Of a stretch of 64,000 nucleotides of DNA, positions 10,594 to 30,399 are shown piece after piece. The DNA comes from Promethearchaeota archaeon (GTDB lineage: Archaea > Asgardarchaeota > Heimdallarchaeia > Hodarchaeales > Hodarchaeaceae), in assembly GCA_048938105.1 (NCBI GenBank), contig JBHLMN010000018.1:32001-96000 (forward strand). Reading direction: 5' to 3'. Position 1 is the first letter of the stretch. Every line of letters begins with the position of its first letter. A program made the translations under genes and the position numbers. The notes beneath the pieces are model-generated. The model was not told the DNA's origin, ran no database searches, and was given only the letters and a program-made list of their open reading frames with translations.

Positions 10594-12198
10594 CTAATCC
10601 AATTCAGCTTCAAACTCACAATATGGATGCCCATTTGCTTGACATTTTGTCTCGCGAACAATAATTTCATCTTCAACTAATAGGTTTAACCTACCATTAA
10701 GAAACCCTGCCATGAAATCGTCCAAAGTGTTAATTTTAGTTGGTTTTTCGATTCCTGGGAAAAGAGCAGAGAGATCCACAGTAGAGAGGTCAATTCCTGA
10801 AGTGGCTGCACTTTCCCAGATTTTAAAAACAGCAGATTCATCATCGATAACTTCAACAGTAGCCACACCATGAATCCGAGATAATAACCGTCCTGGTGTG
10901 TTTAAATAATAGCCAAGTAATTCGCAGGCTTGAGGAAATTCCGCTGGGGGTAAGTATTCTTCACCATCAAGATTTCGTTGAGATACGATCCTACTGATAC
11001 TTCCGACATCTTCTAGCATTTGACCATAGCTTTGACCCGCATAAGCTAATAATGTGGAATTGAATGGATCAGAAAATTTTACAGAGGTAATGATGTGCTG
11101 CAAGACTGAGATATGACAATAATCTCCAATACCTGGTCTCATTTGCCTACGATTAAGGATCGAATCAAACATATTTCGAGAAATGGTTGATAAGGAAACA
11201 TCAAACCGTAAGCGGTCATCATCACTGAAGAATTCCTTAGATTTAACCTTAGAGGGACTATAATGGTCAGACTCCTCGCCCAATCGTATATCAAATTCAC
11301 AGTAATCGTCTCCTAACCCCCAGCATTTTGTCTCCTCAACACTCGCTTTCTCACCTAATGTTACCTCCAAGAGGCCTGCAATTTCTCCAGATATAAATCC
11401 ACAAACATCTTGTCCAATATCAGAGTTCATCACTGCGAGTCCAGAATCTTTAATTTGTAATCGAGCATGATAAGGTGCAATTTGTGTAATATGAACTTCA
11501 GAGGCTATATTAGTTGCACCAGGATTTGGTCCATAAAGAATACGAAAACCCTTCAGCATTTCAGTAAATCGGGATTTCATTCTGTGTGTTTCCATAATCT
11601 TGGGATTATATCTATGGATCCATGATTGAGCTGACCCGAATTTTCCCGCTAGTTCTCCTGAACGAAATAAGTATGACTTGGCACTTGGATTAATAGCTAA
11701 TAAAGAAGTAACAATGGATTGAAGATGTCCTATGTGAACGTAATCGCCAACTGAAGGACGAGTCACTGATTCAAGTTCATCCTCATTTAATATCCTTTCT
11801 GAAACACTGATGATTGATAATTTCCGCCATCGATCAATCAATTGAGACGATTCACTTGCTTTAACCCCCGCCTCGATCAATTTATTAAATAAAAAGTTGA
11901 ATAAATCATACTGATCTGGTGAAAACATATTTGTAGCATCAGTAGTTTCAGTAGTAAAGCTGGAGAACATTGATGCTGCCTGAGTTGCAGAGAGAATAAC
12001 CTCATCATCATAGAGAACATGAGGGACGTTGCGGACACCATATTTACTCGCAATATCACGGTTTTCATCTGTATCAATAATAGTTAAACTCGCCCCGCCT
12101 TGAGAAGTATCTTCAATTCGCTTTAAATGTCGTGCAACTGGCTTACAGGCTGCACAATGAGGCCCCTTGAATAGAATAATTTTGATAGGTTCTGTCAT
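10594..12198 (-). CDS. Thioredoxin domain fused to two tandem V4R domains
   Basis: N-terminal CAAC and VP; V4R signatures CGFISGEIAG..EETKCWGLGDDYCEF and FMAGFLNG..ETKCQANGHPYCEF; internal repeat RPSVGDYVHIGHLQ / RPGIGDYCHISVLQ. Confidence 0.85.
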   Translation of the reverse strand: MTEPIKIILFKGPHCAACKPVARHLKRIEDTSQGGASLTIIDTDENRDIASKYGVRNVPHVLYDDEVILSATQAASMFSSFTTETTDATNMFSPDQYDLFNFLFNKLIEAGVKASESSQLIDRWRKLSIISVSERILNEDELESVTRPSVGDYVHIGHLQSIVTSLLAINPSAKSYLFRSGELAGKFGSAQSWIHRYNPKIMETHRMKSRFTEMLKGFRILYGPNPGATNIASEVHITQIAPYHARLQIKDSGLAVMNSDIGQDVCGFISGEIAGLLEVTLGEKASVEETKCWGLGDDYCEFDIRLGEESDHYSPSKVKSKEFFSDDDRLRFDVSLSTISRNMFDSILNRRQMRPGIGDYCHISVLQHIITSVKFSDPFNSTLLAYAGQSYGQMLEDVGSISRIVSQRNLDGEEYLPPAEFPQACELLGYYLNTPGRLLSRIHGVATVEVIDDESAVFKIWESAATSGIDLSTVDLSALFPGIEKPTKINTLDDFMAGFLNGRLNLLVEDEIIVRETKCQANGHPYCEFEAELD

Positions 12199-13564: not shown

Positions 13565-14041
13565 GTGACTCAAAAAGGACCAAAACTCTGTGATTCTTCA
13601 ACTTATAAAGGGAAAAAACAAACACCCCGTCCCCGTCGGGTTCTACTGGACATTGGTTGCGATGATCCTGATCTTATCAAAGCTTTAACTCAACTAGGCT
13701 TGGAAGTTGAACTGGTCTGGCGCCATGCCGTGGATCTCTTGAATTATGAAATTATCGAAATCTGTACAGCCCAACACATTGCTATCTTGGTGTCAACCAA
13801 TAGCCAGTTATTGACTCCCCCAGAAGAATGGCTCACTTATCTCATGCCTCATCGAACAAGGCTCTTTTTTCCGCCTCCGCAATTGTTGCACGACCCGAAA
13901 GGTTTAGCTCAGGCTATCTATGAACGTACTTTTACTCGACTGAAACGAAAACAAGTGGGACAGCTTAATCCACACCATTTACCTCGTAATTCTAGTAAAA
14001 ACGTTACTAATCCCCCTTCAAATAAAATTAACATGGAGTGA
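13565..14041 (+). CDS. PIN-like (DUF5615/Mut7-C-type) domain protein with degenerate acidic site
   Basis: RVLLD....LIKAL..LGLEV.......L.NYEIIEIC.....ILVSTN resembles the 'LLDE..L..G.DV..D.EI..A..RILVT.D' consensus; GTGA overlap with tnpB. Confidence 0.55.
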   Translation: MTQKGPKLCDSSTYKGKKQTPRPRRVLLDIGCDDPDLIKALTQLGLEVELVWRHAVDLLNYEIIEICTAQHIAILVSTNSQLLTPPEEWLTYLMPHRTRLFFPPPQLLHDPKGLAQAIYERTFTRLKRKQVGQLNPHHLPRNSSKNVTNPPSNKINME

Positions 14042-15573
14042 GGAATCTAATGCGACTAACCCTTGAAGCAGCATGGTATCCATCCACAGAACAACATCAA
14101 ATCATTCAGGATCATATGAGACGCTTTCAAATCGTGAAACGCGTCGCATTCAACTGTCTCCTCAAAGGACACGCGAGACAACCAATTGTCACTCGGATTC
14201 GAAAATTAAATCTCCTCTCAAACGCTCGGTATATTCGCTCTGCAATTGAGGAAGCCAAAACAATTATCCAAGCTCAACAACAGCTGGTCTCTCTTTATTG
14301 CAAGGAGAGTGCGTGGAAAGTCCAACAGGCTAATCAACGCTTGAAGGACTACCAACAAACCTTGAATCAAAAACAAAAACCTTTCACGAAAAAACAATAT
14401 CAAAAACTCAAAGGACTACATACTTATTTCCAAAAGACCCAGTCTCTCCAGATGAAATGGCAAACTCATAGAAAAAATAAGACTATTCCTTCAATAGTAT
14501 TTGGAGGCAAACAAAATCTTCACCTATACCAACAAGGAAAAATATCCAAAGAGGAGTGGACTAAAAGACGGAACAATGGCATTTATTGTGTGGGTGAAAA
14601 AAACAAGCGAGGCAACGCCAACTTACGTCTTCATTATGATCCTCTTACCGACACATTCACTTTTTCGATGCTATTAGATCGTGGCCAAAGAAATGAGCGA
14701 TTGAGGGCTTTTTTATTTATCCCAATCAAGTATGAAACACTTTTTCGACGATTAACCTATAGTGAAGAGAAATACACTGTTCGTGTTTTGTACTCCACTA
14801 ATAGGACTTTTTTTCGAGTATTGGTTACATTAGATCTTTCAACCGAAATCATATCAAATAATAATGGGATAGCTGGAATAGATCTTAATCCTTCAGGGAT
14901 TGCGATCACTTTAATCTATCCTAATGGAAATTATCGCTGTTCAAGATGGTTTTTCTGCTCTGAACTAGTATATGCCCGAAAAGAGAAGCGTGACTGGTTG
15001 ATCGGTAATCTTGTGAAAAAAGCTCTCAATTGGATTACTTCGTATAAGTTGAATACTCTCACTTTAGAAGATTTGACATTTTATAAGCAGTTTGGATCAA
15101 ATAAAAGGTTTAATCGAATCAAAACAAACTTTGTTCACAAAAAATTACTTCAGACTATTCAAGCTCAAGCGATAAAACAGAAAATAACACTCAAATTGAT
15201 TAATCCAGCCTATACTTCAATTCTTGGCAAGATAAAATATCAACGCTGTTATGGTCTGAATATTCACCAGGCTGCTGCTTTAGTCATTGCCCGTCGCAGT
15301 CTGGGTTTAAATGAAAAACTTTATGCTCACATCAATGGGAAACGGCTGGTGTTGGTTGTTCCACCGATGGAAGGATGGACAAGCAAACAGATCCACCGTT
15401 TATCCCGTGAGATAGATGAGTTCACGGCTCACCTGGGTAATTCAACGAGTAAAGTGTCGGTTAGTTTACCCCGACTAATTACTCGGCGCCAAGGCTCAGG
15501 AGGCGGGATAGTCCCCCGCGATCACACCCCTACTCCAGGTAAGGGTGCACCAGTTCTCAAGACTGGTGTTTAG
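14038..15573 (+). CDS. tnpB: TnpB-related RNA-guided nuclease (long, Zn-finger-less clade with HxAAA at RuvC-III)
   Basis: RuvC-I GIDLN, RuvC-II LEDL, INPAYTS..G..KY...G..IHQAAALVIARR; also FGGK and GNANLR segments typical of this clade. Confidence 0.9.
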   Translation: MRNLMRLTLEAAWYPSTEQHQIIQDHMRRFQIVKRVAFNCLLKGHARQPIVTRIRKLNLLSNARYIRSAIEEAKTIIQAQQQLVSLYCKESAWKVQQANQRLKDYQQTLNQKQKPFTKKQYQKLKGLHTYFQKTQSLQMKWQTHRKNKTIPSIVFGGKQNLHLYQQGKISKEEWTKRRNNGIYCVGEKNKRGNANLRLHYDPLTDTFTFSMLLDRGQRNERLRAFLFIPIKYETLFRRLTYSEEKYTVRVLYSTNRTFFRVLVTLDLSTEIISNNNGIAGIDLNPSGIAITLIYPNGNYRCSRWFFCSELVYARKEKRDWLIGNLVKKALNWITSYKLNTLTLEDLTFYKQFGSNKRFNRIKTNFVHKKLLQTIQAQAIKQKITLKLINPAYTSILGKIKYQRCYGLNIHQAAALVIARRSLGLNEKLYAHINGKRLVLVVPPMEGWTSKQIHRLSREIDEFTAHLGNSTSKVSVSLPRLITRRQGSGGGIVPRDHTPTPGKGAPVLKTGV

Positions 15574-17986: not shown

Positions 17987-20900
17987 TTATTCCTCTTCAC
18001 CAAGTAATTCTGTTGTTCCATAAATGTTTTGATAAGATAGAACAATAGTAGAAACAAATTTTCTTATTTCGAAGGCTGATTTTTGGATTTTTTCCTTTTT
18101 TGAGGGATCTTTATCCATAATCACATGAAAGGAGTGTACTTGATCTTGTATTTCATCTTGAAATTGGTTTAACAATGGAAATACGTTTTTATGAATTAAA
18201 ATATTGAGTGTGAGATTCTCTTGGCCTCCACGAGCTTCAGGCCTTTCTACTGCAAATCCGAAAGACAGTACACTAGTTCTTATACCCTCAGCTAAAATAA
18301 AATCGAAGTTAGATGGAATTTCCTCGTCAAAATTTTGGCCAAATCCAGTCCCACCAAAAGAGCGGTCTGAAAGTTCTACAAGTTTCGAATAATTATCCTT
18401 TAACAGCTCGGGTAATATGATAATAGGGATGGGCCCATGCCTCTGGTCAAAGAAAGAAACAATAACACCGAGTGTGTGGTTATCTAGAGAGTTTATTACT
18501 TCATTAGGATTGATATCAGCGATTTTTTGTAGTACAAGTTCTTTATCTAAACCTACAAGCTCTGGTTTGCGTATGAACTTGATATAAACGATTGAACCAA
18601 CGAAAATCACAAATATAATAACACCTGCAATTAAAAGAACCCATTGAGGCAAGCCAGGTGATTGGAATCTGAAAGTTTGATCAGGTAATCCTGTATTATC
18701 AAAGGCATACTCATTAATATTTCCATCACCATCTCTAGTCGATATCCGATAGTGAATTTCAATATCTGATTGGTTATGCTGGAAATCTACTGTTACTGAA
18801 TATAAAAAGACATTATCAGATTTATTTTGAAAGATCATTTTAGAATGATGCAGTTCTGTTTGCAGAACAGTAGCCCCAAGTCCAGCAGTACCTTCAGTTT
18901 CGCTTACAGGTACGAAATAATAGAAAAGTATAACTTCTGAGATATTTGAGCCAAATTCTTCCACTTCTGCATAAAAAATAAGACTAGTGGGATCATACTC
19001 ATCATCCTTTATGAACCAAGCATCAATGACTCGTGGAGGAGATTTATCCAACAGAGTAAAAATATAATCCTTCTCATTAGTAATATAAAAAACATCAGAA
19101 TATTCAACAGTAGTTCTGACTGTAATTCTCATTGTTGCATTTGTATTAAGAAATGCAAAATCATGTAGCGTATAAGGTAGAATCCAATAACCAGTAGCAT
19201 TAGGAAAGTTTGTTATCGTATTCACAATTGGTACAGTGGACTTGTTCAGAAAAATTTCAAACCTAACATCAACAATCTGATTATCGAGAGAATCATGTGC
19301 TTTTACAGCAAATTGATATAAGCCTTCTGATTCTGTGTAAATATACGAAACAAACTCTTGAATTGCTGGGCGACTTTCAATGAATATTGACATGCTAATT
19401 AATGATCCATTATCGAATCCATCAAAAGGTCGAATCTGCACAGTCCAATTTTGACCAGGATGAGTTTGATCTTGAGGAATCAACCTCAGATTGTCATATT
19501 GCGATTGATATGAACCATTAACGTACCAATTAAAGAAAGATAAGTCACTATCTCCTAGATCGATATCTAAGAGCGTTAAACTTACATTAATATCTTCATC
19601 TTCAATCAGGAAATCTGGAAATTCATTTCCAACTAGCTTAAGTATTTTAATCTCAGGAGCTTTATTCACAATAAAAATTTCTTGTGAACTATAATTCAAT
19701 GACCAATTTTCACCGTCATCAGTGATTTGGACACGAGCGAACCATGATTCGCCCTTTGAAATCTCCGTAGCTGGAATTTCTTCCCAATTATCGTATTCAG
19801 GTTGATAAGTACCGTTTTTGAACCAATAAATGAAGGTATATTGCCATAATATGGGATCTTGATCTGGATCTGTGTTGTTAATATCTTGAATGGGATCAAG
19901 GATTAAGCTTGTGTCTGCATAAGTTTGAGTCGCATTCTTGTTACTACTCCATATTGTAACTTCTGTAATAATCGGAGGACTATTTAAGATAGTAATCGGA
20001 TCAGAAGTATATATGATGCTATAATCAAAACCATCAAAAACTTGTATCTCGATTCTCCAACTATCCCCTTTAGTAGTATTTATAGCAGGAATCATAGTAG
20101 AATTTTCAAACTTATCTTGCTCTATTCCCTTGTTGAACCACTTAATAAAGGCTACATAGGAGTCTACAGGGTCGTCATCTTCGTCAAAAAAATCCCAAGA
20201 TATGTTTAAAGAATCAACTGTATATGCAGGAAGGTCTAATCCGTTTGGTTGGATTTTTACATCATATACAATAGGTAATGAGTTAACAATAATAATATTT
20301 GAGCTAATGTTTGGTTCTATTCCCCAATTTATACCATCAAAAGGTTGAACATAGACAGAAATATTATCCCCTCTAGAGAAGGTATTACAAGAAAGACGGA
20401 TTCGTACATGAATCTGATTTCCAATTTGATCAAAATCTATTATAGTTCCATTTTCTGTGTCTGGGATAGGGGTACTATTATTGTACCATAAAATTAGTGT
20501 TTCTGACAGAGTAATATTATCTCCATCATAATCAAAATAAATAAACATTAAATCTAAGTCCATATCCGATTTTGTTTCTAGGTTAACCTCATAGAATTCA
20601 GTAATTATGGGAGGACTATTATTTATTATAATAGCAGGTGAAGTTACCCAGTCACCAAAATCGCCCCAACGATCACGTGGCCTAACACTAACGTTCCAAA
20701 TGTCTCCACGGGATAAATAGCTAATTGGTACAAAAAATGATGATATTTCTTCCACTAAAGTCCCATTTCTAAACCATTTATATTCAGCATCAGTGACTAA
20801 ACCATTTTCATCATATTCAATATCATAAAGGGCATTACTTTCCCCGGAATCGGGATCCAAAGTAGTATAATTGACATAAAGGACTTTAGAGGCATAAAAA

Positions 20901-23900
20901 ATTGTTGTAATATTATTAGGGCCATGAATATAAGGGGATCCATCAATTGTTGGAGCAGCATTATCGATGATTAAGTACACTCTATATTTTTGCCATATTT
21001 CACCTAGGCTTTCCCCATCATGGGGAGTAATTTGGACGGTGATATAATCTCCTGCAACAAAATATGTGCTTAATAAGTCCAAAGTTCCATTGACTTTATG
21101 TATTTCATCTCCATTTCTTTCAACGGTCCAATTAATCTTAGTTCTTGCTAGGTCTAAGTCATCACCATCAGCATCATTAATATAGGGATCAAGAAGAACA
21201 CTAATATCATCTAATGTGTTTAATCCTCCAGTTAATGTTACATCATCAAGTGACATGAGCGAGTTTTGAATAGTTATTTTTTCTGATGTATAATTTCCTG
21301 ACCATTCCGTTCCATCAAAGACACGAATAACAAAAGTCCAATTTTCTCCCTTTGCTGTATAACTTGAAGGCACAGAAGTTTTATTATTTAGACTCGGTAC
21401 TTCCTTAGTTCCATTTTTCCACACAATGGACAAATTAACCATAAGATCATTATCAATATCATGATAATATTCAATATAGTTTGCAATAAGGGTATTTGTG
21501 GTATACGCGGTAGTGGATGGATATATTTCAACTGATAATAGTTCAGGAGCCGTGTTTTCAATCATTATCGTGGCATTGGTACTCCAATTGCCATAGTCTC
21601 CGTAAATATCTTGTGGTTTCACTTCTACTGTCCAGTTGTCTCCTTTAATAAGAGGAGCAATATCAAGAATTTTAAATGTTGGTCCATCAAATTGAGATTG
21701 ATAAATGTCATTTCTATACCAACGGAAAATGGTAATCCCCTCATTATCTCCATCAGGGTCAGAATAGGTATAGCTTACATTTAAATACCCACCAGCTACC
21801 TGATTGCTAAGTGTTAAATTCACCATTAGTGCTTCTGGAGGTTTATTTGGAGGTACTCCAATACTCATGGTTGCAGAAGAAATCCAGCCACTAAAGTTCG
21901 TTCCATCGCTTATATTCATTTCAACACGCCATAGATCATTATTAGTTGTGTTTCCACTCTTAATTACCAATGTATTGGTATAATTAAGCACCCAACTTCC
22001 CAAGCTATAGATATACCACCTTATTTCTAGTGACTCATTTGGATCTGAATCAGCGTCAAAATATGTATAGTTTGCAATCAAATCATCAGTAGACAATATT
22101 TCTGCAGGTATTGTATTATTATTTATATCTACAATCAAAGTCGGTGGAGTATTTCCAATAGTAATTTGGTTAGAAACAGTAAATACTCCAAAATTCTGCC
22201 CATCATACGGAGTAATAATATAATAGAAAATATAACTCTTATTTGTGGCACTAGGTGGTACCTCTGTTTGATTTTCAAAGTTTGTTAGCTCAAGAAATCC
22301 AGAACCATTCCTATAATCACAATACCATCTGATCAAAGACCCCTGTTCTATATCACTTGGATCAGGATCAATCCAATCATAGGAGGCAGTTAGAGTATTC
22401 CCTGTGAGAGGATCACTCGGATAAATAATCACATTCTTTGTGGCAGGAGCAGAATTCTGAATTGTAATAATAATTTCTGAAGCAATCATATCTCCAAAAT
22501 CCTTCCCATCTCGAGGTTTTACTGTTGCATTCCAAATTTCACCCCTCACTAGCGCACTTGAAGGAATTTGTGTTTCATCGTTATATGCTGGTTGTAACTT
22601 CCATTCTGTTCCATTCCATAGATACCATCGAATCTCTGTTCCAGATTCGGTATATCCTTCAGCATCGAAGTAATCATAAAGTAGATATAGAGTGTCGTTG
22701 CTAGTAACCGGTAATTCCTCTGAAAATGCATCTCTGGATAAGGATACATTCTCAGCAATAGGTACGAGATTCGGAGCATATCCTGGATGTTCAGATGAGG
22801 TGTATGTATTTCCTTTAGTATCATTCACCTTAACCACAAAGTTAATAGATCCTTCAATCATGACAAGAGTATTATTCATAAACCCTGATGTTGTATTTTG
22901 CATTATTGCCCATAATGCACTTAAATCTCCCATATTCTCATGATACGTTACGTTTACAATAACAGTATTGATTTTGCCCCAGGAATCAGAAACATTTGCT
23001 TTAAAAGTACCATATGGCCCTTCATCAGTAAAAAAGGCCCAATCATCAACATTTGGGGCTATTGTGTCATAATCGAAGGTGTGGTTGCCCTCAATAGAGG
23101 CTTTTTTTAGAGTGTTATCGAAAGTATCAGATGCATTAACAATTTGATAAGTATAATAATCATCGTAGTTAATTGAGAGAGGTTGATAAATCCATATGTC
23201 GCTAGCATTCTTACTCATATCAACTTCTATAATTCCGTTAAGTAACAACTTTACATTAGTTACTGTTGAAAATGAATCAGTGACATTTGCCCAAAATGTT
23301 GGATTTCCATCACCTGGATCGTCAACACCAAAGCTATCAATTACAGGAGGAGTCTTATCGGTATAAAGTGTTAGTGCATGAATATAAATATCCTGTTCTA
23401 TACTTTCGGCATAGATTTGTATTCTATTTTCTGAATCGATTCCACTACCACCCATCAACCATTGGTCACCACCTACATCATAACGAGGAAATGTCCAACT
23501 TTGGCCATATTTTCTAGCTATATTCTTATAATCTGCGTAACCACCGGTCGATTCATACTGTAAAATGACTCCTGAAGCATTAGAAGGTACAGTAGAATAA
23601 CTGTCTAAGTCTCGTATAGTCCATCCTGGGTATGGTGCTGAAATACTATCCCTGTTTGTGTCTAACCAGTCAATGCTATCCTTTACTTCTGCGATTAAGA
23701 AAAATTTGGCTGCCCTCCCACTAGTAATGTAATATTCAAATTGGTCATTTGCATCGATTTTGACGAAAAAAACTCCACAATTATATTCTTCCCACTCTCT
23801 AAATGTCATAGAATCAGTAGAACCAACAGCTCTGACCAATATTGTTGCATCTTGATCAGATGTTGATTGTCCAAAAAGGATAACTCCTGTTGTAGTGTCA

Positions 23901-25729
23901 TCTACGCCACTAATAGTAATCTTATTCCATGATGAGTCAGCAGTTAAACTTCCTAAATCAGAAGCAACTCTTTTAAATTGTGGATCCGAGCCTACAGTAT
24001 AACCCATAACATAAAGTCTCGAGGATGCACTTTGTCGCCAAGTATCAATATATTTATGTTCACTAAGCTTAACTATTTGCATTCTCCACGTTTCTTCTTC
24101 AATTCTACAATAATTAGAGCCCCCATTCATGAAATCATTAGTATCCTGTGATCCTCGGGCAACAGCATGACGAACATAAATACTATCTTCAACCCAAGTT
24201 AATATTACACCTGTGGCATTGCTAGGAATGCTGTCATCTGATAAATCCTGTTGTACCCAAGAACTATATGTCATCCCTAAATTCACTTCATCTGGGCTAT
24301 CAAGCCAAATAAATCCAGAATCATCCCCTAAAACCTGTTCTGGACCTTCTACAATCAACAAGACTGAGTCAATCTCCCACCAATCTTGAATACTATCAGT
24401 AGAGGTTGTTGAACCACCAAATTTAATCGTAAATGTTGGACTAGTAAGTGTAACTGTGAAATTATTCCATGTGGAAGCTGTTAGATCTGAAGTAATCAAC
24501 TCCCAAGAGTCCCCATCCCAATAAGTTACATTAATATCTTCAATTCCTCCAAATGAGCCTGTTTTGATACATAATTCCTCTGCAATACTTCCAGAGTCAT
24601 AAACTCCAGCAAATTGAGCTTCTAGATCTAATTGATAATCAGTTCCAGTTCCACCACCAGAAAAACCTGAAGGAACATCAGTGGAAAATGTGCCGCCACT
24701 ACCAGCCTCAACACAATTGGATGAGCCAGCAGAGTCAGTTAAATCATTGTCAAACTCATAATAATGGACTAGATTGCTTTCCGAACCTGATAATTTAGTT
24801 TTATAATCATTCTGAATAGCCGAAAGGCTTCTATCAGTGTCATAATAGCGAAAATCATCAACATGCCCATCGACTTCATAACCACTGTTTCTGGAGTTCA
24901 TAATATTATTTTGAATGACTCCAATAGTGCTTACTGCACCTGTCCATGTTGAAGTAGAAGCCACCTGAGAAGGTTGATTATTCTCATCTCCCTCGTAAAT
25001 GTAAATAGTATTCGCAATTTCATCCCAAGTTACAGCCCAAAAATACCATGTATTAGTCGTAAAACCATGAGTATAAAGTAATGCATCAGTTACCCCCCAA
25101 TCTAGATGTAATTCCGAATTTCCAATTCCACCAAATCTAATCTCAAAATCAGTATGTTGACCCCAGAAACGACCACTAATAGAGTCAAACTTTAACCACA
25201 GAGAAATTGTGCCTGATGTTGAACCAAAATCTGTTAAACCACCAGAACCAACCTGTAAAAAATTCCCAAAACCACCAGGAGCATCCCAAGAATGCGTGTT
25301 GCCACTGGAAGGAATTACTTCTGTCATGTTATCATAAATTGAATCTGTTGCCTGTATATTACTAAACAAGTCATGGCTGCCTAAATCAGGACTTGAATCA
25401 ACATCAGATGTCAAGTCTACATAGTCTTCAATCGTTCCTCCTCCTGGTCCTTGAATTTTATGATGAATTCCAATTGAAAAATTATTATTTGCTTGAAAAT
25501 TAATTTCAGAAGATTCAAGTTCTATTCGAGGTGACCTCATAAGTCTTGATACTGCCTGATTGCTTCTATTTTCCTCTTTTGATATTCTGAAACCTCTTAA
25601 TAGCTCCAACGCAATCGAATTTGAATCTTCATAATTTACTGTTTGGATTGGAATAGAAAATGAAACAATATTAAGTACAAAAAAACAAGTAAAAAAACCG
25701 AGAATGAAATTTTTATGGCGTATTAACAT
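17987..25729 (-). CDS. Giant single-pass surface protein: signal peptide, LamG domain, about 11 Ca-binding Ig-like repeats, TM helix and cytoplasmic folliculin/SMCR8-like longin (uDENN) domain
   Basis: N-terminal hydrophobic signal; LamG motifs (TISLWLK, WYFWAVTWD, GHVDDFRYY); about 100-aa repeats N..P...D.D.D....W..NG...KG..W...V.P.DG; TM at about aa 2363-2385; tail FFDQRHGP and PEARGG. Confidence 0.85.
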   Translation of the reverse strand: MLIRHKNFILGFFTCFFVLNIVSFSIPIQTVNYEDSNSIALELLRGFRISKEENRSNQAVSRLMRSPRIELESSEINFQANNNFSIGIHHKIQGPGGGTIEDYVDLTSDVDSSPDLGSHDLFSNIQATDSIYDNMTEVIPSSGNTHSWDAPGGFGNFLQVGSGGLTDFGSTSGTISLWLKFDSISGRFWGQHTDFEIRFGGIGNSELHLDWGVTDALLYTHGFTTNTWYFWAVTWDEIANTIYIYEGDENNQPSQVASTSTWTGAVSTIGVIQNNIMNSRNSGYEVDGHVDDFRYYDTDRSLSAIQNDYKTKLSGSESNLVHYYEFDNDLTDSAGSSNCVEAGSGGTFSTDVPSGFSGGGTGTDYQLDLEAQFAGVYDSGSIAEELCIKTGSFGGIEDINVTYWDGDSWELITSDLTASTWNNFTVTLTSPTFTIKFGGSTTSTDSIQDWWEIDSVLLIVEGPEQVLGDDSGFIWLDSPDEVNLGMTYSSWVQQDLSDDSIPSNATGVILTWVEDSIYVRHAVARGSQDTNDFMNGGSNYCRIEEETWRMQIVKLSEHKYIDTWRQSASSRLYVMGYTVGSDPQFKRVASDLGSLTADSSWNKITISGVDDTTTGVILFGQSTSDQDATILVRAVGSTDSMTFREWEEYNCGVFFVKIDANDQFEYYITSGRAAKFFLIAEVKDSIDWLDTNRDSISAPYPGWTIRDLDSYSTVPSNASGVILQYESTGGYADYKNIARKYGQSWTFPRYDVGGDQWLMGGSGIDSENRIQIYAESIEQDIYIHALTLYTDKTPPVIDSFGVDDPGDGNPTFWANVTDSFSTVTNVKLLLNGIIEVDMSKNASDIWIYQPLSINYDDYYTYQIVNASDTFDNTLKKASIEGNHTFDYDTIAPNVDDWAFFTDEGPYGTFKANVSDSWGKINTVIVNVTYHENMGDLSALWAIMQNTTSGFMNNTLVMIEGSINFVVKVNDTKGNTYTSSEHPGYAPNLVPIAENVSLSRDAFSEELPVTSNDTLYLLYDYFDAEGYTESGTEIRWYLWNGTEWKLQPAYNDETQIPSSALVRGEIWNATVKPRDGKDFGDMIASEIIITIQNSAPATKNVIIYPSDPLTGNTLTASYDWIDPDPSDIEQGSLIRWYCDYRNGSGFLELTNFENQTEVPPSATNKSYIFYYIITPYDGQNFGVFTVSNQITIGNTPPTLIVDINNNTIPAEILSTDDLIANYTYFDADSDPNESLEIRWYIYSLGSWVLNYTNTLVIKSGNTTNNDLWRVEMNISDGTNFSGWISSATMSIGVPPNKPPEALMVNLTLSNQVAGGYLNVSYTYSDPDGDNEGITIFRWYRNDIYQSQFDGPTFKILDIAPLIKGDNWTVEVKPQDIYGDYGNWSTNATIMIENTAPELLSVEIYPSTTAYTTNTLIANYIEYYHDIDNDLMVNLSIVWKNGTKEVPSLNNKTSVPSSYTAKGENWTFVIRVFDGTEWSGNYTSEKITIQNSLMSLDDVTLTGGLNTLDDISVLLDPYINDADGDDLDLARTKINWTVERNGDEIHKVNGTLDLLSTYFVAGDYITVQITPHDGESLGEIWQKYRVYLIIDNAAPTIDGSPYIHGPNNITTIFYASKVLYVNYTTLDPDSGESNALYDIEYDENGLVTDAEYKWFRNGTLVEEISSFFVPISYLSRGDIWNVSVRPRDRWGDFGDWVTSPAIIINNSPPIITEFYEVNLETKSDMDLDLMFIYFDYDGDNITLSETLILWYNNSTPIPDTENGTIIDFDQIGNQIHVRIRLSCNTFSRGDNISVYVQPFDGINWGIEPNISSNIIIVNSLPIVYDVKIQPNGLDLPAYTVDSLNISWDFFDEDDDPVDSYVAFIKWFNKGIEQDKFENSTMIPAINTTKGDSWRIEIQVFDGFDYSIIYTSDPITILNSPPIITEVTIWSSNKNATQTYADTSLILDPIQDINNTDPDQDPILWQYTFIYWFKNGTYQPEYDNWEEIPATEISKGESWFARVQITDDGENWSLNYSSQEIFIVNKAPEIKILKLVGNEFPDFLIEDEDINVSLTLLDIDLGDSDLSFFNWYVNGSYQSQYDNLRLIPQDQTHPGQNWTVQIRPFDGFDNGSLISMSIFIESRPAIQEFVSYIYTESEGLYQFAVKAHDSLDNQIVDVRFEIFLNKSTVPIVNTITNFPNATGYWILPYTLHDFAFLNTNATMRITVRTTVEYSDVFYITNEKDYIFTLLDKSPPRVIDAWFIKDDEYDPTSLIFYAEVEEFGSNISEVILFYYFVPVSETEGTAGLGATVLQTELHHSKMIFQNKSDNVFLYSVTVDFQHNQSDIEIHYRISTRDGDGNINEYAFDNTGLPDQTFRFQSPGLPQWVLLIAGVIIFVIFVGSIVYIKFIRKPELVGLDKELVLQKIADINPNEVINSLDNHTLGVIVSFFDQRHGPIPIIILPELLKDNYSKLVELSDRSFGGTGFGQNFDEEIPSNFDFILAEGIRTSVLSFGFAVERPEARGGQENLTLNILIHKNVFPLLNQFQDEIQDQVHSFHVIMDKDPSKKEKIQKSAFEIRKFVSTIVLSYQNIYGTTELLGEEE
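19380..22775 (-). repeat. About 11 tandem ~100-aa Ig/cadherin-like repeats in the giant protein
   Basis: Repeat starts NLVP, NSAP, NTPP, NKPP, NTAP, NSLM, NAAP, NSPP, NSLP, NSPP, NKAP, most with a DxDxD loop; diverged at DNA level. Confidence 0.85.
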
Positions 25730-25967: not shown

Positions 25968-28157
25968 TCAATCCAGATCTTTTTCAAGAAGAGCTAAGTA
26001 CTCCTTTAGTTCTCTAGATGTTTGATCTTCTACCACTTCAAATTCAGGTTTTAATACTTCCTTCGGTCTTATTCCTTCTGATTCTGATTCAATTACCTTT
26101 TTTATAGTTTCTTGGATGACTCGTGCTGCAAAATCTAAAGCACCATCTTTATCAATTGGGAGTTGTATCGCTTCCTTAAGAAGCCGCTTTAACTGATCTA
26201 TTTTGATAGATTCCACAACATTAACCTGAGCTATTGGAAATCCTCGCTGCACAAAGTCAATTAAAACTCCTTTCTTGGCTTTATAAACAGTAAACGCTAA
26301 TTGTTCACTATCAGGGAGCATGAGATAATTAGTATCTACTTCAATCTGCATAGGAATTATAAAATTAACAGTTTCAGTTAAATATCCTTGTTCTTTCCGA
26401 CTTCTTTTAGTTGTCACTTCACTGGTAGATTTCAAGGTTTTCTTTTGCAACTGTCTTAAAGATTCGTGAATAATTTTTGTTGCAAAATGCATAGAACCCA
26501 ATCCTTCCTCAAAGAATCCCATATTCTGCATATTAAGTTCATATGCTAATAAATACAGAATTTCATCAGAAGTGATCTTTGATGAGACTTTTGCACTTCC
26601 AATTAACTCTGTTTGACCAACAAGCCCTAAAAAATGAAAAGAAATAATTGCGTTTAAACCTTCATCAACAAGATCGATTTTAAATCCCAACCCCTTGATA
26701 TTAGGAATAGCGATTATCCCGTTGTTCGTTTCAGCCTCTACAGGAATATCAACTTCTGTCAATTCCACTGGTTTTTCTTCAACAATCTCTTCTACAGCTT
26801 CTTTTTTCTTCTTTTTCATTTTTTCTGGGATTAAATATTTCTCTAGTATTTCTTCAATAGACATCTTTGGTTTTTCAGCTATAAAGACCAAACACTTAAC
26901 AAAATCTTCTTCTTTAAGTCGTGATTTTAAATAGGCACCAAAAAGCTGTAAAAGTTTGTCATCGGTTATATTTTTGTATTTTTTATCCCCTTGAGACTTT
27001 TTAATGAATGGTAAATATTTGAAAAAAACATCAAGAAGAAGAGGGATTTCAATACCGATTTTAGCTGCTGTCTCAAAGATAATATCATATCCAGATTCGA
27101 CAATCTCTGTGGCTTTATCAGGTTCAATTCGGAAAAAATCTACGAAGTAACTAATTCTCGGGTTGATTTGAACACTTTCCCTTTTTTCAACTAGTTTTTC
27201 TTCATTTACAACTGATATAATGTGTTCTTTATGTTTTGTCGGCGTAAGAACTGAATCTTGGCCCACAAATTCATCCGCATATGGTTGAGGACTCACATCA
27301 ACATGTGTTAATGTTGTTTCCGAAATAGACTCTTCTTCAGCAGCATTACCCAGGAATATTCCTCCTTGAGATAATGCCTCAGGATCTGTTTTTACAGCTG
27401 ACTCCATCAACCGTTGTAATTTACTTAATATAGCAGGATCTCCAGCCATTTTAGGAGTAATAGTTTCTACAGGTTGATTAGCTACAACAGCTGAAGGCCT
27501 TCGAAGTGTCATTCCAGTTTCATGAAATTCTTCAATCTCACCAATCTCACGCCCCTCAACAAATTCACTCTTAGAGATTTCTGGGATTACAAGTTCAATT
27601 ATTCTTCCAAAAGCGTTGATTACACTTTCTGGACGATAGATTGTAGTTCTAAAGAATTTAAGTGGCCCTTTAGGATATTCTAATTGAAGTTGTTCTTTTA
27701 GCTGTTCATGTATTGATTCATAGTTTGGTGAGTCAACCAAAAGATCGTTCTTATGTAGAAAAACAAAAGTCTCTGTATGAGGAGAATAAGTATTAATTTT
27801 TTCAAGACATGCTTTGAAATATTCAATAGCATTGTTTCGGGAAGTTTTGTTGGCTACATCGATTAAGAATATAAAAATTTTAACACTACTGAATACAAAT
27901 GGGCTAAAACCACTTAAAAAACGCTTCAGAAAGACCTTTTGACCACCTAAATCCATTATGGTTATTGGTGTATCACGAATTGTAATAGACATTCGTTCAT
28001 AATTAATTGTAGCTGAAAGACTGTCAACGTCCTCCGCACGTTGTTTGAGGAAAAATATACGTTTGACCGCAGTTTTTCCTGCTTCAGATAATCCTGCTAT
28101 CAATATTTTGTATCCTAGCTTCGCAGCTAATTCTGCGTCAGAAACCCATTCGCTCAT
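25968..28157 (-). CDS. Rag/Gtr-like small GTPase with a long C-terminal extension
   Basis: G1 GLSEAGKT, G2 ATINY, G3 DLGGQ, G4 HKND (His-Lys typical of Rag), G5 TTIY; about 540 additional aa. Confidence 0.88.
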   Translation of the reverse strand: MSEWVSDAELAAKLGYKILIAGLSEAGKTAVKRIFFLKQRAEDVDSLSATINYERMSITIRDTPITIMDLGGQKVFLKRFLSGFSPFVFSSVKIFIFLIDVANKTSRNNAIEYFKACLEKINTYSPHTETFVFLHKNDLLVDSPNYESIHEQLKEQLQLEYPKGPLKFFRTTIYRPESVINAFGRIIELVIPEISKSEFVEGREIGEIEEFHETGMTLRRPSAVVANQPVETITPKMAGDPAILSKLQRLMESAVKTDPEALSQGGIFLGNAAEEESISETTLTHVDVSPQPYADEFVGQDSVLTPTKHKEHIISVVNEEKLVEKRESVQINPRISYFVDFFRIEPDKATEIVESGYDIIFETAAKIGIEIPLLLDVFFKYLPFIKKSQGDKKYKNITDDKLLQLFGAYLKSRLKEEDFVKCLVFIAEKPKMSIEEILEKYLIPEKMKKKKKEAVEEIVEEKPVELTEVDIPVEAETNNGIIAIPNIKGLGFKIDLVDEGLNAIISFHFLGLVGQTELIGSAKVSSKITSDEILYLLAYELNMQNMGFFEEGLGSMHFATKIIHESLRQLQKKTLKSTSEVTTKRSRKEQGYLTETVNFIIPMQIEVDTNYLMLPDSEQLAFTVYKAKKGVLIDFVQRGFPIAQVNVVESIKIDQLKRLLKEAIQLPIDKDGALDFAARVIQETIKKVIESESEGIRPKEVLKPEFEVVEDQTSRELKEYLALLEKDLD

Positions 28158-28444: not shown

Positions 28445-29347
28445 GTGTCAGCAGTAGCAAAACAAAAAGTTCTTTTTATGGGCCTTGGTGCTTCAGGTAA
28501 ATCAAGTATACGCTCGGTAGTCTTCGAAGGAAAATCAGTGGAAGATGTCAAAGATTATAATGCAACGATAAATTATACCCGATCTTCTAAAAGTATAATT
28601 GATAGTGCATTTCAAATTTTTGATTGTGGGGGTCAAGAAGCGTTTATTTCCGTCTTTGTTGGAGAACAAGCGGAATTTATTTTTAGCGATGTTTCTATAT
28701 TAGTTTGGGTCGTAGATGTTTCCAATTTCGATGTAGTTAGTACCTCAAAATTCTATTTTGATTTAGCTGTTAAAAAATTAAGTGAATACTCACCTGATTC
28801 TGTAATTTTTTGTCTCTTTCATAAGATTGATCTTCTACTATTGGATATGAAGGAACAAGTTGTAACAACCATGAAAAGTTATTTTACAGCTGAAGAATCG
28901 TTTAATGTTCATTATCGGGGAACATCAATTTATGACAACTCGATTTTTTTAGCTGTGGGAGAGATGGTACAAACCTTAATTCTAAAAACTACAAAAGCTA
29001 AAACCGTCTCTGAGGCTATTCAGGAATTCATGCAAGCACACAGAGAGTTATCAGGAATCGCAGTTTATTCAGATGATGGATTACCTGTATTTGAGGAAGG
29101 AGAAATGGCTGATCAAATTATTCTTCCTGCTAATCTTTGGCTAACAAATTACGACAGGCTAAGTAATGAGTTTGCTTCTGACATAACTTTTAAAACTACT
29201 TTAGAAACAAATGACTACATTTTTATTTTTCAAAAACTTAAAGGGGAGCTGCTTCTGTCAGGTATAGCGCAAAAAGTTGCTCCACTTCAATATGTGCTTG
29301 TTAAAATGGAACAGCTTGCTGAAATTATAAGCAAGTTATTGCAATAG
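28445..29347 (+). CDS. Rag/Gtr1-like GTPase with C-terminal roadblock domain
   Basis: KVLFMGLGASGKSSIRSVVF, ATINY, DCGGQ, FCLFHKIDLL and TSIYD closely match RagA/Gtr1 motifs; C-terminal roadblock (GIAVYSDDGLPV...). Confidence 0.92.
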   Translation: MSAVAKQKVLFMGLGASGKSSIRSVVFEGKSVEDVKDYNATINYTRSSKSIIDSAFQIFDCGGQEAFISVFVGEQAEFIFSDVSILVWVVDVSNFDVVSTSKFYFDLAVKKLSEYSPDSVIFCLFHKIDLLLLDMKEQVVTTMKSYFTAEESFNVHYRGTSIYDNSIFLAVGEMVQTLILKTTKAKTVSEAIQEFMQAHRELSGIAVYSDDGLPVFEEGEMADQIILPANLWLTNYDRLSNEFASDITFKTTLETNDYIFIFQKLKGELLLSGIAQKVAPLQYVLVKMEQLAEIISKLLQ

Positions 29348-29376: not shown

Positions 29377-30399
29377 TTAGATATAATGTAAAACGCCATT
29401 CTCGATTTTACCATTCTTAATAAGACCTGCACTTATTAAGCTTACAATGAAATCCTCTATCAACGTTTCAGAGATTCCGGTTTGAACTCTAGCCTCCCCA
29501 AGGTTTAATGGGGACTTTTTCTTATAAGATTGTACAATTAATTTTGCTAATGTTTGTCGTTTTGGAGTAAAGTGAAAATCTAGATATTCATCAACTTCAT
29601 CATAGGTTAGTTGATCGGTAAGGCGAATTCGATAGTGAATCCCTGTTTCTGCTTGTGATATCAAACCAATTTTAGAGAGCATTCTTTGAACAATTAGTTC
29701 ATCTGATATTATTTCTACTTTGTAGAGGGAACCTTTGGGCAATTGTCCTGTGAAATTCTTAACTTGATGAAGCAAATTAACTTTAAGAGAAGGTTTAACT
29801 TCTTCTCGTATTAAGACATTTATCTGTTTGTTTGGTTTGTCTACTAGCATAATTGGAGCACTTGCAGGAACGAGAGCGAGTTCTAAAAAAGGTTCAAATG
29901 TCTCTCTATCAGAAAGATAAAATGACTCAATACCTGTTTCAATGATCTGCAATTTTTCATCAATTTTTTCTAAGAATCCTTTTTCTTTTAGGTCTTCATC
30001 TGTACGTATCTTATACGACCGAATAGCTCTCCTTAAATTTTGCTTAAGAACGCCAACATATTTCACTGTGGAGCTTGAACGAGTTATAACCCAAAAAACG
30101 ACAATTCTTCCAAACTGAGCTATACGAACATCTTGAGAATCCACTGCTTTTAAAGTGAAAATGAATCCAATTGTTAAGAAAGGATCCCGAGGGGTTGGTA
30201 TTGGTCCATAAGAACGAATTTCCCCAACGCGAGGAATATCTGAACTCAATGCGGTTAAGGATTTAATTGCAAGATTGAATCCCTCTTCCTCGGATAAAGG
30301 AGAGGAATTATAGATGTTCTGAGGGCCAAAATCCTCAAAAATGGTTATTATCAATCCATCAGTGAGACTGGTACCTTTTAAAGCATCATTCTTTGACAT
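29377..30399 (-). CDS. Longin/uDENN domain protein with C-terminal PCI-like winged helix
   Basis: IITIFEDFGP, YGPIP.P, FIFTLK...D.R...FGR N-terminal pattern; C-terminal LNL...TGIS...IEDFIVSLISAGLIKNGKI. Confidence 0.65.
   Translation of the reverse strand: MSKNDALKGTSLTDGLIITIFEDFGPQNIYNSSPLSEEEGFNLAIKSLTALSSDIPRVGEIRSYGPIPTPRDPFLTIGFIFTLKAVDSQDVRIAQFGRIVVFWVITRSSSTVKYVGVLKQNLRRAIRSYKIRTDEDLKEKGFLEKIDEKLQIIETGIESFYLSDRETFEPFLELALVPASAPIMLVDKPNKQINVLIREEVKPSLKVNLLHQVKNFTGQLPKGSLYKVEIISDELIVQRMLSKIGLISQAETGIHYRIRLTDQLTYDEVDEYLDFHFTPKRQTLAKLIVQSYKKKSPLNLGEARVQTGISETLIEDFIVSLISAGLIKNGKIENGVLHYI

Follow-up and report, generated by a model that had tools for sequence, protein, structure and literature searches.

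A folliculin-like longin domain as the cytoplasmic tail of a giant archaeal surface protein encoded beside Rag-family GTPase genes

In the window, a stretch of 64,000 nucleotides from a Promethearchaeota archaeon, a single-pass surface protein of 2580 amino acids ends in a cytoplasmic tail that is built as a longin domain, carries a GP motif and a near-invariant loop arginine, occupies the C-terminal site behind the transmembrane helix and is recurrently linked to Rag/Gtr GTPase genes. The explanation that we favor, at somewhat better than even confidence, is that these last 197 amino acids are a membrane-tethered longin of the GAP kind acting on a Rag-like GTPase; the structural and genetic features are observed, and the GAP activity is what we infer from them. 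In eukaryotes, the core of lysosomal nutrient sensing consists of the Rag GTPases together with FLCN-FNIP and GATOR1 as longin GAPs, and the locus bears on the question of their evolutionary origin. If the arginine-dependent activity is real, the archaea most closely related to eukaryotes would have a transmembrane receptor that acts directly on a Rag-type switch.

The receptor gene and the elements of its tail are the following:

17987..25729, minus strand: gene for the 2580-aa single-pass surface protein
18581..18643, minus strand: transmembrane helix, aa 2363-2383
18545..18562, minus strand: juxtamembrane motif ELVGLD, aa 2390-2395
18020..18475, minus strand: longin core, aa 2419-2570
18431..18454, minus strand: GP motif FFDQRHGP, aa 2426-2433, in the beta1-beta2 turn
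18224..18241, minus strand: PEARGG loop between beta4 and beta5, aa 2497-2502, with the candidate arginine finger Arg2500

The open reading frame is uninterrupted over its 2580 amino acids and encodes an N-terminal hydrophobic signal or anchor (aa 7-28), an ectodomain of approximately 2330 amino acids, the transmembrane helix and the tail of 197 amino acids. Since aa 2363-2383 (Kyte-Doolittle 19-aa means up to 2.95) is the sole internal hydrophobic segment and is followed by KFIRK, the part behind the membrane corresponds to 17987-18575. N-x-S/T sequons occur at 3.0 per 100 amino acids in the ectodomain versus 1.5 in the tail. In the juxtamembrane motif ELVGLD the G and D are invariant and the E and L are conserved in at least 90%, and in the AF2 model two short helices come after it. 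The receptor has 82 full-length homologs of 1.4-4.4 kaa, many of them with Laminin_G_3/DUF2341. All near-full copies of the tail family (182/182) lie at the extreme C-terminus of their protein, and a transmembrane-like segment just before the domain is found in 168 of 179 members. No DENN domain follows the longin in the 2580-aa protein, which stops about 10 residues past helix alpha3. The tail is thus not an FLCN ortholog in its architecture, given this missing DENN domain and the C-terminal position of all 182 copies. The distribution of the family is patchy: of 61 genomes sampled across the phylum, 3 contain it.

The first-pass annotation had taken this tail for a catalytically competent GAP-type longin as opposed to a passive scaffold, which the analysis supports in part: the structural comparison bears out the GAP-type longin fold, and catalytic competence would be a prediction from it. 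The AF2 model of the longin core (pLDDT 89.6) shows the element order beta1, beta2, alpha1, beta3, beta4, beta5, alpha2, alpha3, which is the longin topology. In an unbiased VIA-align search of the tail model against 48,161 PDB representative chains, only nine chains reached a Z of at least 8, and the best eight matches are all longins of GAP complexes or the Asgard longin. The top match is the Loki longin 8yqg (Z 13.6), accompanied by FLCN (Z 11.5-12.7, the latter for 8dhb_J, with an rmsd of 2.7-2.8 over 135 residues), SMCR8-C9orf72 (Z 11.1 and 9.7) and Npr2/NPRL2 (Z about 10-11; 10.0 and 9.8 in the 48,161-chain search). Lst4 (Z 10.8) and FNIP2 (Z 9.2) complete the eight. Together with Lst4, FLCN, SMCR8-C9orf72 and Npr2/NPRL2 are the closest solved relatives, and the longins of adaptors, TRAPP, SNAREs and DENND1 remain at Z 8.1 or below in the same search. 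In the ESM-Atlas, the closest cluster consists of Heimdall proteins, 23% of which carry PF11704. A Roadblock/LC7 (MglB-like) topology, alpha-beta-beta-alpha-beta-beta, was considered as well and rejected: the model core opens with two strands, and roadblock structures score at most Z 6.2.

The two motifs on which the likeness to folliculin was originally based are present in the open reading frame where they had been placed, FFDQRHGP at aa 2426-2433 and the Arg2500 codon at 18230-18232 (aa 2492-2512: FAVERPEARGGQENLTLNILI). G2432-P2433 is located between the model strands 39-48 and 52-59, and the structural alignment, which begins with model residue 39 on FLCN residue 2, puts HGP on H14-G15-P16 and F2427 on F10 of FLCN. 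The AF2 model also locates Arg2500 (model R120) in the expected longin beta4-beta5 loop, residues 116-122 between strands 103-115 and 123-133. Conservation among homologs, likewise anticipated, is essentially complete: R2500 is kept in 196 of 200 family members, G2432 in 193/193, P2433 in 186/193 and E2504 in 196/201, and F2427 and Q2429 are, like G2432 and P2433, invariant or nearly so. The FLCN strings cited in the first-pass annotation proved to be right, as database folliculins have HGP at 14-16 and R164 within SLARGF; a test segment of FLCN, 63 aa long, was 100% identical to the primate protein. According to a preprint, R147 of SMCR8 lies in the betaL4-betaL5 loop and is the counterpart of FLCN R164. 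Among longins, only those of the GAP kind are reported to have the GP motif, which neighbors their Arg finger (Traffic 2025, PMC12290439).

At the level of sequence, the relationship with folliculin is seen via the family rather than from the tail itself. A Smith-Waterman comparison of the tail with human FLCN 1-275 gave a best score of 27, which was matched by 391 of 500 shuffles and is not significant; Pfam returned nothing for the tail of the 2580-aa protein, whole or cut, even at E up to 10. The bare motif likeness to FLCN is not above chance, and it is the conservation and the fold that lift it above. Among the 82 tails, PF11704 is the commonest Pfam family (five matches, best E 0.0027), and the tail of a paralog from the same genome matches it with 23.5-23.7 bits at a cut-off of 23.3. 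FLCN residues 150, 160 and 166 fall on PF11704 columns 47, 57 and 63, and R164 therefore corresponds to column 61. Residues 3-67 of the paralog tail cover columns 49-113; both spans are equally long, so the match is ungapped, and the Arg of its PEARGG, residue 15, occupies column 61 as well. This mapping is taken from the uncut paralog match, as the Folliculin match is lost when the paralog and the soluble protein described below are made to start at the Arg. The equivalence of R2500 and FLCN R164 is thus a putative one, supported by the paralog, the family alignment and the topology of the modeled fold.

A soluble PF11704 protein of 437 amino acids encoded in the same genome (29.8 bits) contains both HGP and DPEARG, and hhalign pairs its Arg loop with that of the tail. 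Searched against PDB sequences, this soluble protein gave nothing relevant; with the profile built from the 82 tails, the same database yielded no more than JNK matches at chance level (E 0.16 or worse). Alignment of the tail profile by hhalign with six vertebrate FLCN N-termini, a set of almost no diversity, yielded no meaningful match. A profile search of 1.84 billion representatives retrieved 187 proteins, and no eukaryotic FLCN was identified among the 150 matches listed.

The gene neighborhood provides candidate substrates and a candidate partner:

25968..28157, minus strand: 729-aa 'long Rag' with a Gtr1/RagA-type G domain at aa 17-195
28445..29347, plus strand: 300-aa 'short Rag' with a Gtr1/RagA G domain and full-length matches to similar Rags elsewhere
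29377..30399, minus strand: 340-aa protein (P0215) with a longin at the N-terminus, a winged helix at the C-terminus and a gelsolin-like domain between them

The neighboring GTPases, which the first-pass annotation had named as substrates for GAP assays, are real Gtr1/RagA-family genes, and their linkage to the receptor recurs in other genomes. The long Rag lies directly upstream of the receptor gene on the same strand, at a distance of 238 bp; besides its G domain it has about 530 amino acids with no recognized domain, and an Atlas search with its C-terminal 400 amino acids gave no usable match. Its orthologs adjoin the receptor gene in L008, L010 and L013. The idea that only long-type Rags stand beside the receptor was rejected, as L009 has a short-type Rag that is 75% identical to the short Rag of the window. 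Overall, Rag/Gtr genes adjoin at least one tail-bearing gene in eight of the ten genomes examined; they flank receptor homologs in L008, L009, L010, L013, L018, G025 and G026, and no Rag gene was found near the receptor homolog in L007, L011 and L012 (three of ten loci examined). The genome under study contains only about eight strong Rag genes in its 5.85 Mb, none of which adjoins any of its other five tail-bearing genes. A complex prediction of tail aa 2410-2580 with the short Rag, GTP and Mg gave run scores of 0.37, 0.00 and 0.01, which count neither way.

The 340-aa protein is encoded 3.6 kb from the receptor gene, and at least 11 assemblies have members of its family on the contig of a receptor homolog. 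Its longin has an invariant GP (G25-P26) and an invariant D90-x-R92 in the beta4-beta5 loop, and its best structural match is also 8YQG (Z 11.9); over the whole chain, its model aligns poorly with NPRL2 (rmsd 8.9). No credible match was found between it and the tail profile by hhalign, and both longins are related only at the level of fold and motifs. We consider it a candidate partner or second GAP longin.

In the mechanism that we propose, the tail, on the cytoplasmic side of the membrane, would engage a Rag-like GTPase in its GTP-bound state, and Arg2500 would enter the nucleotide pocket and accelerate GTP hydrolysis. Eukaryotic GAP longins are not known to work other than as dimers, and for this reason the tail probably dimerizes as well; its partner would be the longin of the 340-aa GP/Arg protein or the tail of a second receptor. 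The isolated SMCR8 longin is described in a preprint as devoid of GAP activity when its partner is absent, so the tail alone may likewise be insufficient. Ligand binding, adhesion, clustering or other events at the large glycosylated ectodomain could in this way determine which nucleotide the Rag pair carries, and the receptor may represent an archaeal surface protein wired to a Rag switch.

The most serious competing explanation, which we nevertheless regard as unlikely, is that the tail is a non-catalytic membrane platform to which the Rag pair or the soluble 340-aa longin is recruited, in the manner of FNIP, NPRL3 or the Ragulator subunits. The arginine and the GP motif would then serve folding or dimerization (a structural role is conceivable for an invariant hairpin Arg that precedes Gly-Gly), and the catalytic finger, if any, would be R92 of the 340-aa protein, in whose family a GP and a loop Arg are likewise invariant. 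Longin and roadblock domains are often dimeric platforms in the literature, and the non-catalytic partners Lst4 (Z 10.8-11.6) and FNIP2 (Z 9.2) are among the high-scoring matches of the tail model. However, the GP motif is reported to be absent from FNIP2 and NPRL3 and the Arg finger to mark the catalytic subunit (PMC12290439), whereas the tail family is near-invariant in both elements and one degenerate paralog has lost GP and Arg together.

The substrate of a catalytic tail might also be an Arf-like or Rab-like GTPase, as for SMCR8-C9orf72, with the Rag genes as mere neighbors. The best score of that complex is about equal to that of FLCN, the genome under study encodes dozens of small GTPases (its 37 PF04670-type matches are mostly weak) and three receptor loci have no Rag nearby. 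Yet it is the Rag family and not other GTPases that adjoins receptor homologs at seven other loci in several lineages, and the best family at the sequence level is Folliculin or NPR2, both of them Rag GAPs, which makes an Arf or Rab substrate improbable. Much less credible still is a GEF-type longin that activates a GTPase at the membrane like DENN or Mon1-Ccz1. Longin/DENN platforms are mostly GEFs according to the literature, and DENND1A/B and Mon1-Ccz1 do match the tail model with Z 7-9, but they rank beneath every GAP-complex longin, and the combination of GP and loop Arg is reported to be missing from DENND and other GEF longins (PMC12290439). A coincidental motif in an unrelated alpha/beta domain, to which the insignificant pairwise FLCN score and the lack of direct Pfam or PDB sequence matches would correspond, can practically be set aside, as fold search, conservation, the Pfam matches of paralogs and gene context all agree against it.

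The preferred reading of a Rag-directed GAP longin invites a broader and rather doubtful one, in which this prokaryotic locus would foreshadow the Rag switch in its entirety and not in one part only, with the long and the short Rag paralog served by two different GAP-type longins: the folliculin/Lst7-like receptor tail and the soluble longin-gelsolin-like-winged-helix protein, loosely similar to NPRL2. If so, the logic of two GAPs for a Rag pair (FLCN, GATOR1) would be older than eukaryotes, and it would have been wired first directly to the cell surface and not to a lysosome.

GP/Arg longins in Asgard archaea are already published (PMC12290439); their fusion to a receptor and their linkage to Rag genes were not found in the literature searched. 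According to a 2024 study, Asgard GTPases are generally located outside the operons of longin and roadblock genes, so that assigning a GAP to its GTPase is difficult. The tail family offers a concrete, clonable pairing in which the receptor tail is accompanied by two Rag paralogs and another longin, adjacent to each other and recurrent across genomes.

FLCN-FNIP and its yeast equivalent Lst7-Lst4 are the GAP for RagC/D (Gtr2; PDB 6NZD, 6ULG, 8DHB; Pfam PF11704). The tail shares with FLCN/Lst7 the longin fold, the H-G-P before beta2, the A-R-G in the beta4-beta5 loop at the R164 column and the association with the Rag family. It differs from FLCN in that it forms the C-terminal end of a giant surface protein with a single membrane pass, has two additional juxtamembrane helices and an ARGG-x-EN signature not shared with FLCN, and is too dissimilar in sequence for direct detection from the tail. 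Without a DENN domain, it is nearer to yeast Lst7, a longin-only folliculin (preprint), than to FLCN proper. With NPRL2 the tail has in common the longin fold, the GP motif and the Arg in the loop, and the 340-aa protein recalls NPRL2/3 loosely by joining a longin to a C-terminal winged helix, whereas a DEPDC5-like component was not seen. NPRL2-NPRL3 of GATOR1/SEACIT is the GAP for RagA/B with Arg78 as finger, and SMCR8-C9orf72 that for Arf and Rab with Arg147 as finger. The loop Arg of the tail is preceded by E-A, presumably as in the SMCR8 motif LEARGFVR; unlike SMCR8-C9orf72, the tail has neither a DENN domain nor a WDR41-like partner and lies in another GTPase neighborhood.

Among prokaryotic systems, MglB is a GAP for a small GTPase (bacterial MglA) on a related roadblock/longin platform, but it has the roadblock topology scored above, contributes no Arg finger and is not membrane-anchored. 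The lokiarchaeal Roadblock-Longin protein (8YQG), a longin dimer in line with expectation for this type of longin and the best structural match of both the tail and the 340-aa protein, is soluble and fused to a roadblock, whereas the tail is fused to a receptor. Close counterparts are also the Asgard 'Folliculin/SMCR8-type' longins of Heimdall-group archaea (PMC12290439), of which the soluble 437-aa protein is an example and in which the GP motif and the Arg finger are arranged as in the tail. That paper mentions no giant receptor fusion, does not contain the word 'transmembrane' and leaves the partner GTPases open. Compared with those longins, the tail domain described here is always placed at the C-terminus, almost always behind a transmembrane segment, and is linked to Rag genes.

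The receptor is a 2580-residue surface protein, and its architecture fits that of a type-I surface protein with a 197-residue cytoplasmic tail: hydrophobic segments occur at the N-terminus (aa 7-28) and just once more (aa 2363-2383), there followed by KFIRK, with 71 N-x-S/T sequons in the ectodomain (3.0 per 100 aa) and 3 in the tail. The first-pass annotation had placed a folliculin/SMCR8 arginine-finger motif in this tail. Its motif and codon positions match the translated ORF exactly, and the strings it gave for folliculin (FLCN) are borne out by database folliculins, which show HGP at 14-16 and R164 within SLARGF. The positions in the window are:

25729..17987, minus strand: receptor ORF, 2580 aa
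receptor aa 2426-2433: FFDQRHGP
18230-18232, minus strand: codon of Arg2500, within the PEARGG loop

Motif likeness by itself is not significant: in local alignment with human FLCN the tail scores 27 at best, a score reached by 391 of 500 shuffles. The tail itself also stays below the threshold of the Pfam Folliculin family (PF11704), and hhalign against an FLCN profile of low diversity gave no match.

The AlphaFold2 model of the tail, built from the family alignment, is confident (pLDDT 89.6) and runs through two short helices, beta39-48, beta52-59, alpha61-81, beta90-100, beta103-115, beta123-133 and three helices. The modeled topology is that of a longin whose beta1-beta2 turn holds the Gly-Pro (GP) motif and whose beta4-beta5 loop holds R2500, residue 120 of the model. 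In a structural-neighbour search independent of Foldseek, only 9 of 48,161 PDB representatives reached Z >= 8. The top eight matches comprise the Lokiarchaeal longin 8yqg (Z 13.6), FLCN (Z 11.5; 12.7 for 8dhb_J), SMCR8-C9orf72 (11.1 and 9.7), Lst4 (10.8), Npr2/NPRL2 (10.0 and 9.8) and FNIP2 (9.2), and the longins of adaptor, TRAPP, SNARE, DENND1 and Mon1-Ccz1 proteins rank lower (Z <= 8.1). The closest structural cluster in the ESM-Atlas is a Heimdall group annotated in part as PF11704, and language-model features suggest, as leads only, archaeal clusters labelled NPR2 and fungal ones labelled LST7. Ahead of the longin, together with the two short helices, lies a juxtamembrane motif, ELVGLD (18545-18562, minus strand), with invariant G and D; we know of nothing like it in FLCN, SMCR8 or NPRL2.

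The fingers of FLCN (R164) and SMCR8 (R147) are located in the longin betaL4-betaL5 loop according to the literature. A likely equivalence of the arginines was traced using the PF11704 profile columns as a ruler. FLCN fragments beginning at residues 150, 160 and 166 start at columns 47, 57 and 63, hence R164 corresponds to column 61. A paralog encoded by an 8857-aa open frame in the same genome has a tail above the PF11704 cut-off, of which residues 3-67 match columns 49-113; both stretches are equal in length and the match is thus ungapped. The Arg of its PEARGG (residue 15) falls in column 61, the same column as FLCN R164, and its Arg loop is nearly identical to that of the receptor tail. 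The genome also encodes a soluble PF11704 protein (437 aa) with HGP and DPEARG, whose loop hhalign aligned to that of the tail. Two FLCN chains start aligned at model residue 39 (FLCN 2), so that the tail's H-G-P coincides with H14-G15-P16 and F2427, an invariant residue, with F10; in 8DHB, RagC is contacted by the FLCN loop 10-16 and F10.

The tail is the best-conserved portion of a giant Asgard protein family with variable ectodomains. There are 82 full-length receptor homologs (1.4-4.4 kaa; tail identity 44-88%), and an exhaustive profile search retrieved only 187 family representatives. Across about 200 domain copies R2500 is conserved in 196/200, G2432 in 193/193, P2433 in 186/193 and E2504 in 196/201. 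A non-catalytic platform is a less likely reading of the tail, against which speak this conservation and a 1026-aa tail-bearing paralog of the window's genome from which the GP motif and the Arg have both been lost. The domain sits at the extreme C-terminus in all 182 near-full copies and is preceded by a TM-like segment in 168 of 179. The window's genome has six tail-bearing genes; a tandem array of three of them (contig C52:28000-47999) comprises open frames of 1026, 1541 and 8857 aa. Records named Thor-, Odin- or Promethearchaeota have tails and short Rags 47-75% identical to those of the window, yet among 61 genomes sampled evenly across the phylum just 3 had the tail, so these labels may exaggerate its true taxonomic spread.

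The neighbourhood of the receptor gene contains two Rag GTPase genes and a further candidate longin:

25968..28157, minus strand: long Rag, 729 aa, Gtr1/RagA G domain, directly upstream of the receptor gene
28445..29347, plus strand: short Rag, divergent 300-aa Gtr1/RagA protein
29377-30399, minus strand: 340-aa protein, after the short Rag
30477-32366, minus strand: HSP90, adjoining the 340-aa protein gene as at two other loci (L008 866-2770; L020 8042-9925)
12677-13060, plus strand: stand-alone Roadblock/LC7 protein of 127 aa, downstream of the receptor gene by a few kb
10594-12198, minus strand: thioredoxin protein with V4R domains, 534 aa, likewise downstream
13565-15573, plus strand: two overlapping ORFs, 158 and 511 aa, without Pfam match at E 0.01

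The ~530 residues of the long Rag beyond its G domain match no Pfam family, roadblock profile or Atlas cluster, and orthologs of 703-738 aa adjoin receptor genes at three other loci. No Pfam family was found for the 340-aa protein. It is a member of a conserved Asgard family in which G25-P26 and D90-x-R92 are invariant and whose genes usually adjoin a short Rag gene. It was modeled as a longin (Z 11.9 to 8yqg, 11.3 to FLCN) whose beta1-beta2 turn holds GP and whose beta4-beta5 loop holds R92; after the longin come a gelsolin-like middle domain (Z 8.8) and, at the C-terminus, a winged helix (Z 10). The locus thus has genes for two Rags and for two GP/Arg longins, and the 340-aa protein could be a second GAP longin or a partner of the receptor tail.

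Rag genes within 8 kb of a receptor homolog recur at other loci and in further genomes:

L008: gene order as in the window
L009: two short Rags plus a member of the 340-aa family
L010: both Rag types, long and short
L013: short Rag, long Rag, related longin
L018: 340-aa-family gene, related longin, short Rag, receptor
G025: longin, Rag, receptor, further Rags
G026: receptor, two Rags

No Rag gene was found within this distance at L007, L011 and L012; L012 is from the same assembly as L009, and the genome of L007 carries a Rag/340-aa module ~230 kb away from that receptor gene. The Rag module typically hosts one among several receptor paralogs, and 11 members of the 340-aa family share a contig with a receptor homolog, as inferred from contigs of identical length. 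As the window's genome has ~8 strong Rag genes in its 5.85 Mb, adjacency by chance would amount to a few per cent per locus, with the related genomes not being independent. The recurrent Rag genes also speak against the unlikely alternative that the tail is a GAP for a different GTPase class. A second Rag cluster of this genome (C52:94000-105000), in which no receptor gene was found, has a 279-aa longin of the GP/D-x-R type, kin to the 340-aa family, with three or four Rag-like genes on either side of it or nearby. CP070695 is a complete genome of the Heimdall group; in it a tubulin-family gene (L020 15794-17119) takes the receptor's place beside the long Rag, and the receptor homolog is ~230 kb from that site.

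The tail thus combines a longin fold, the GP and Arg motifs, membrane tethering and Rag linkage. A GEF-type longin is a further, improbable alternative; the GP motif is described as specific to GAP longins and adjacent to the finger (PMC12290439). The first-pass interpretation of a catalytically competent GAP-type longin is supported in part: the AlphaFold2 fold, the motif conservation and the paralog Arg on the R164 column argue for a GAP-type longin with its Arg rightly placed, and catalysis is putative. At the membrane, such a tail would bind a Rag loaded with GTP and supply Arg2500 as the finger, probably as a longin dimer since the SMCR8 longin is inactive on its own (literature). Clustering of the ectodomain could control this predicted action on the Rag.

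GP/Arg longins of Asgard archaea are already known, having been published in 2025 in a paper that poses the question of which GTPases partner them and in which the word "transmembrane" is absent (PMC12290439). MK-D1 GTPases are generally outside operons with longins (Tran et al., 2024), and a literature search for Asgard with DUF2341 found no paper. The receptor fusion and the Rag linkage were not found in the published work searched. In its way of working the tail may be likened to Lst7 and FLCN, but FLCN has a DENN domain, whereas the tail lacks one and is fused to a receptor, and it is therefore not an FLCN ortholog in architecture.
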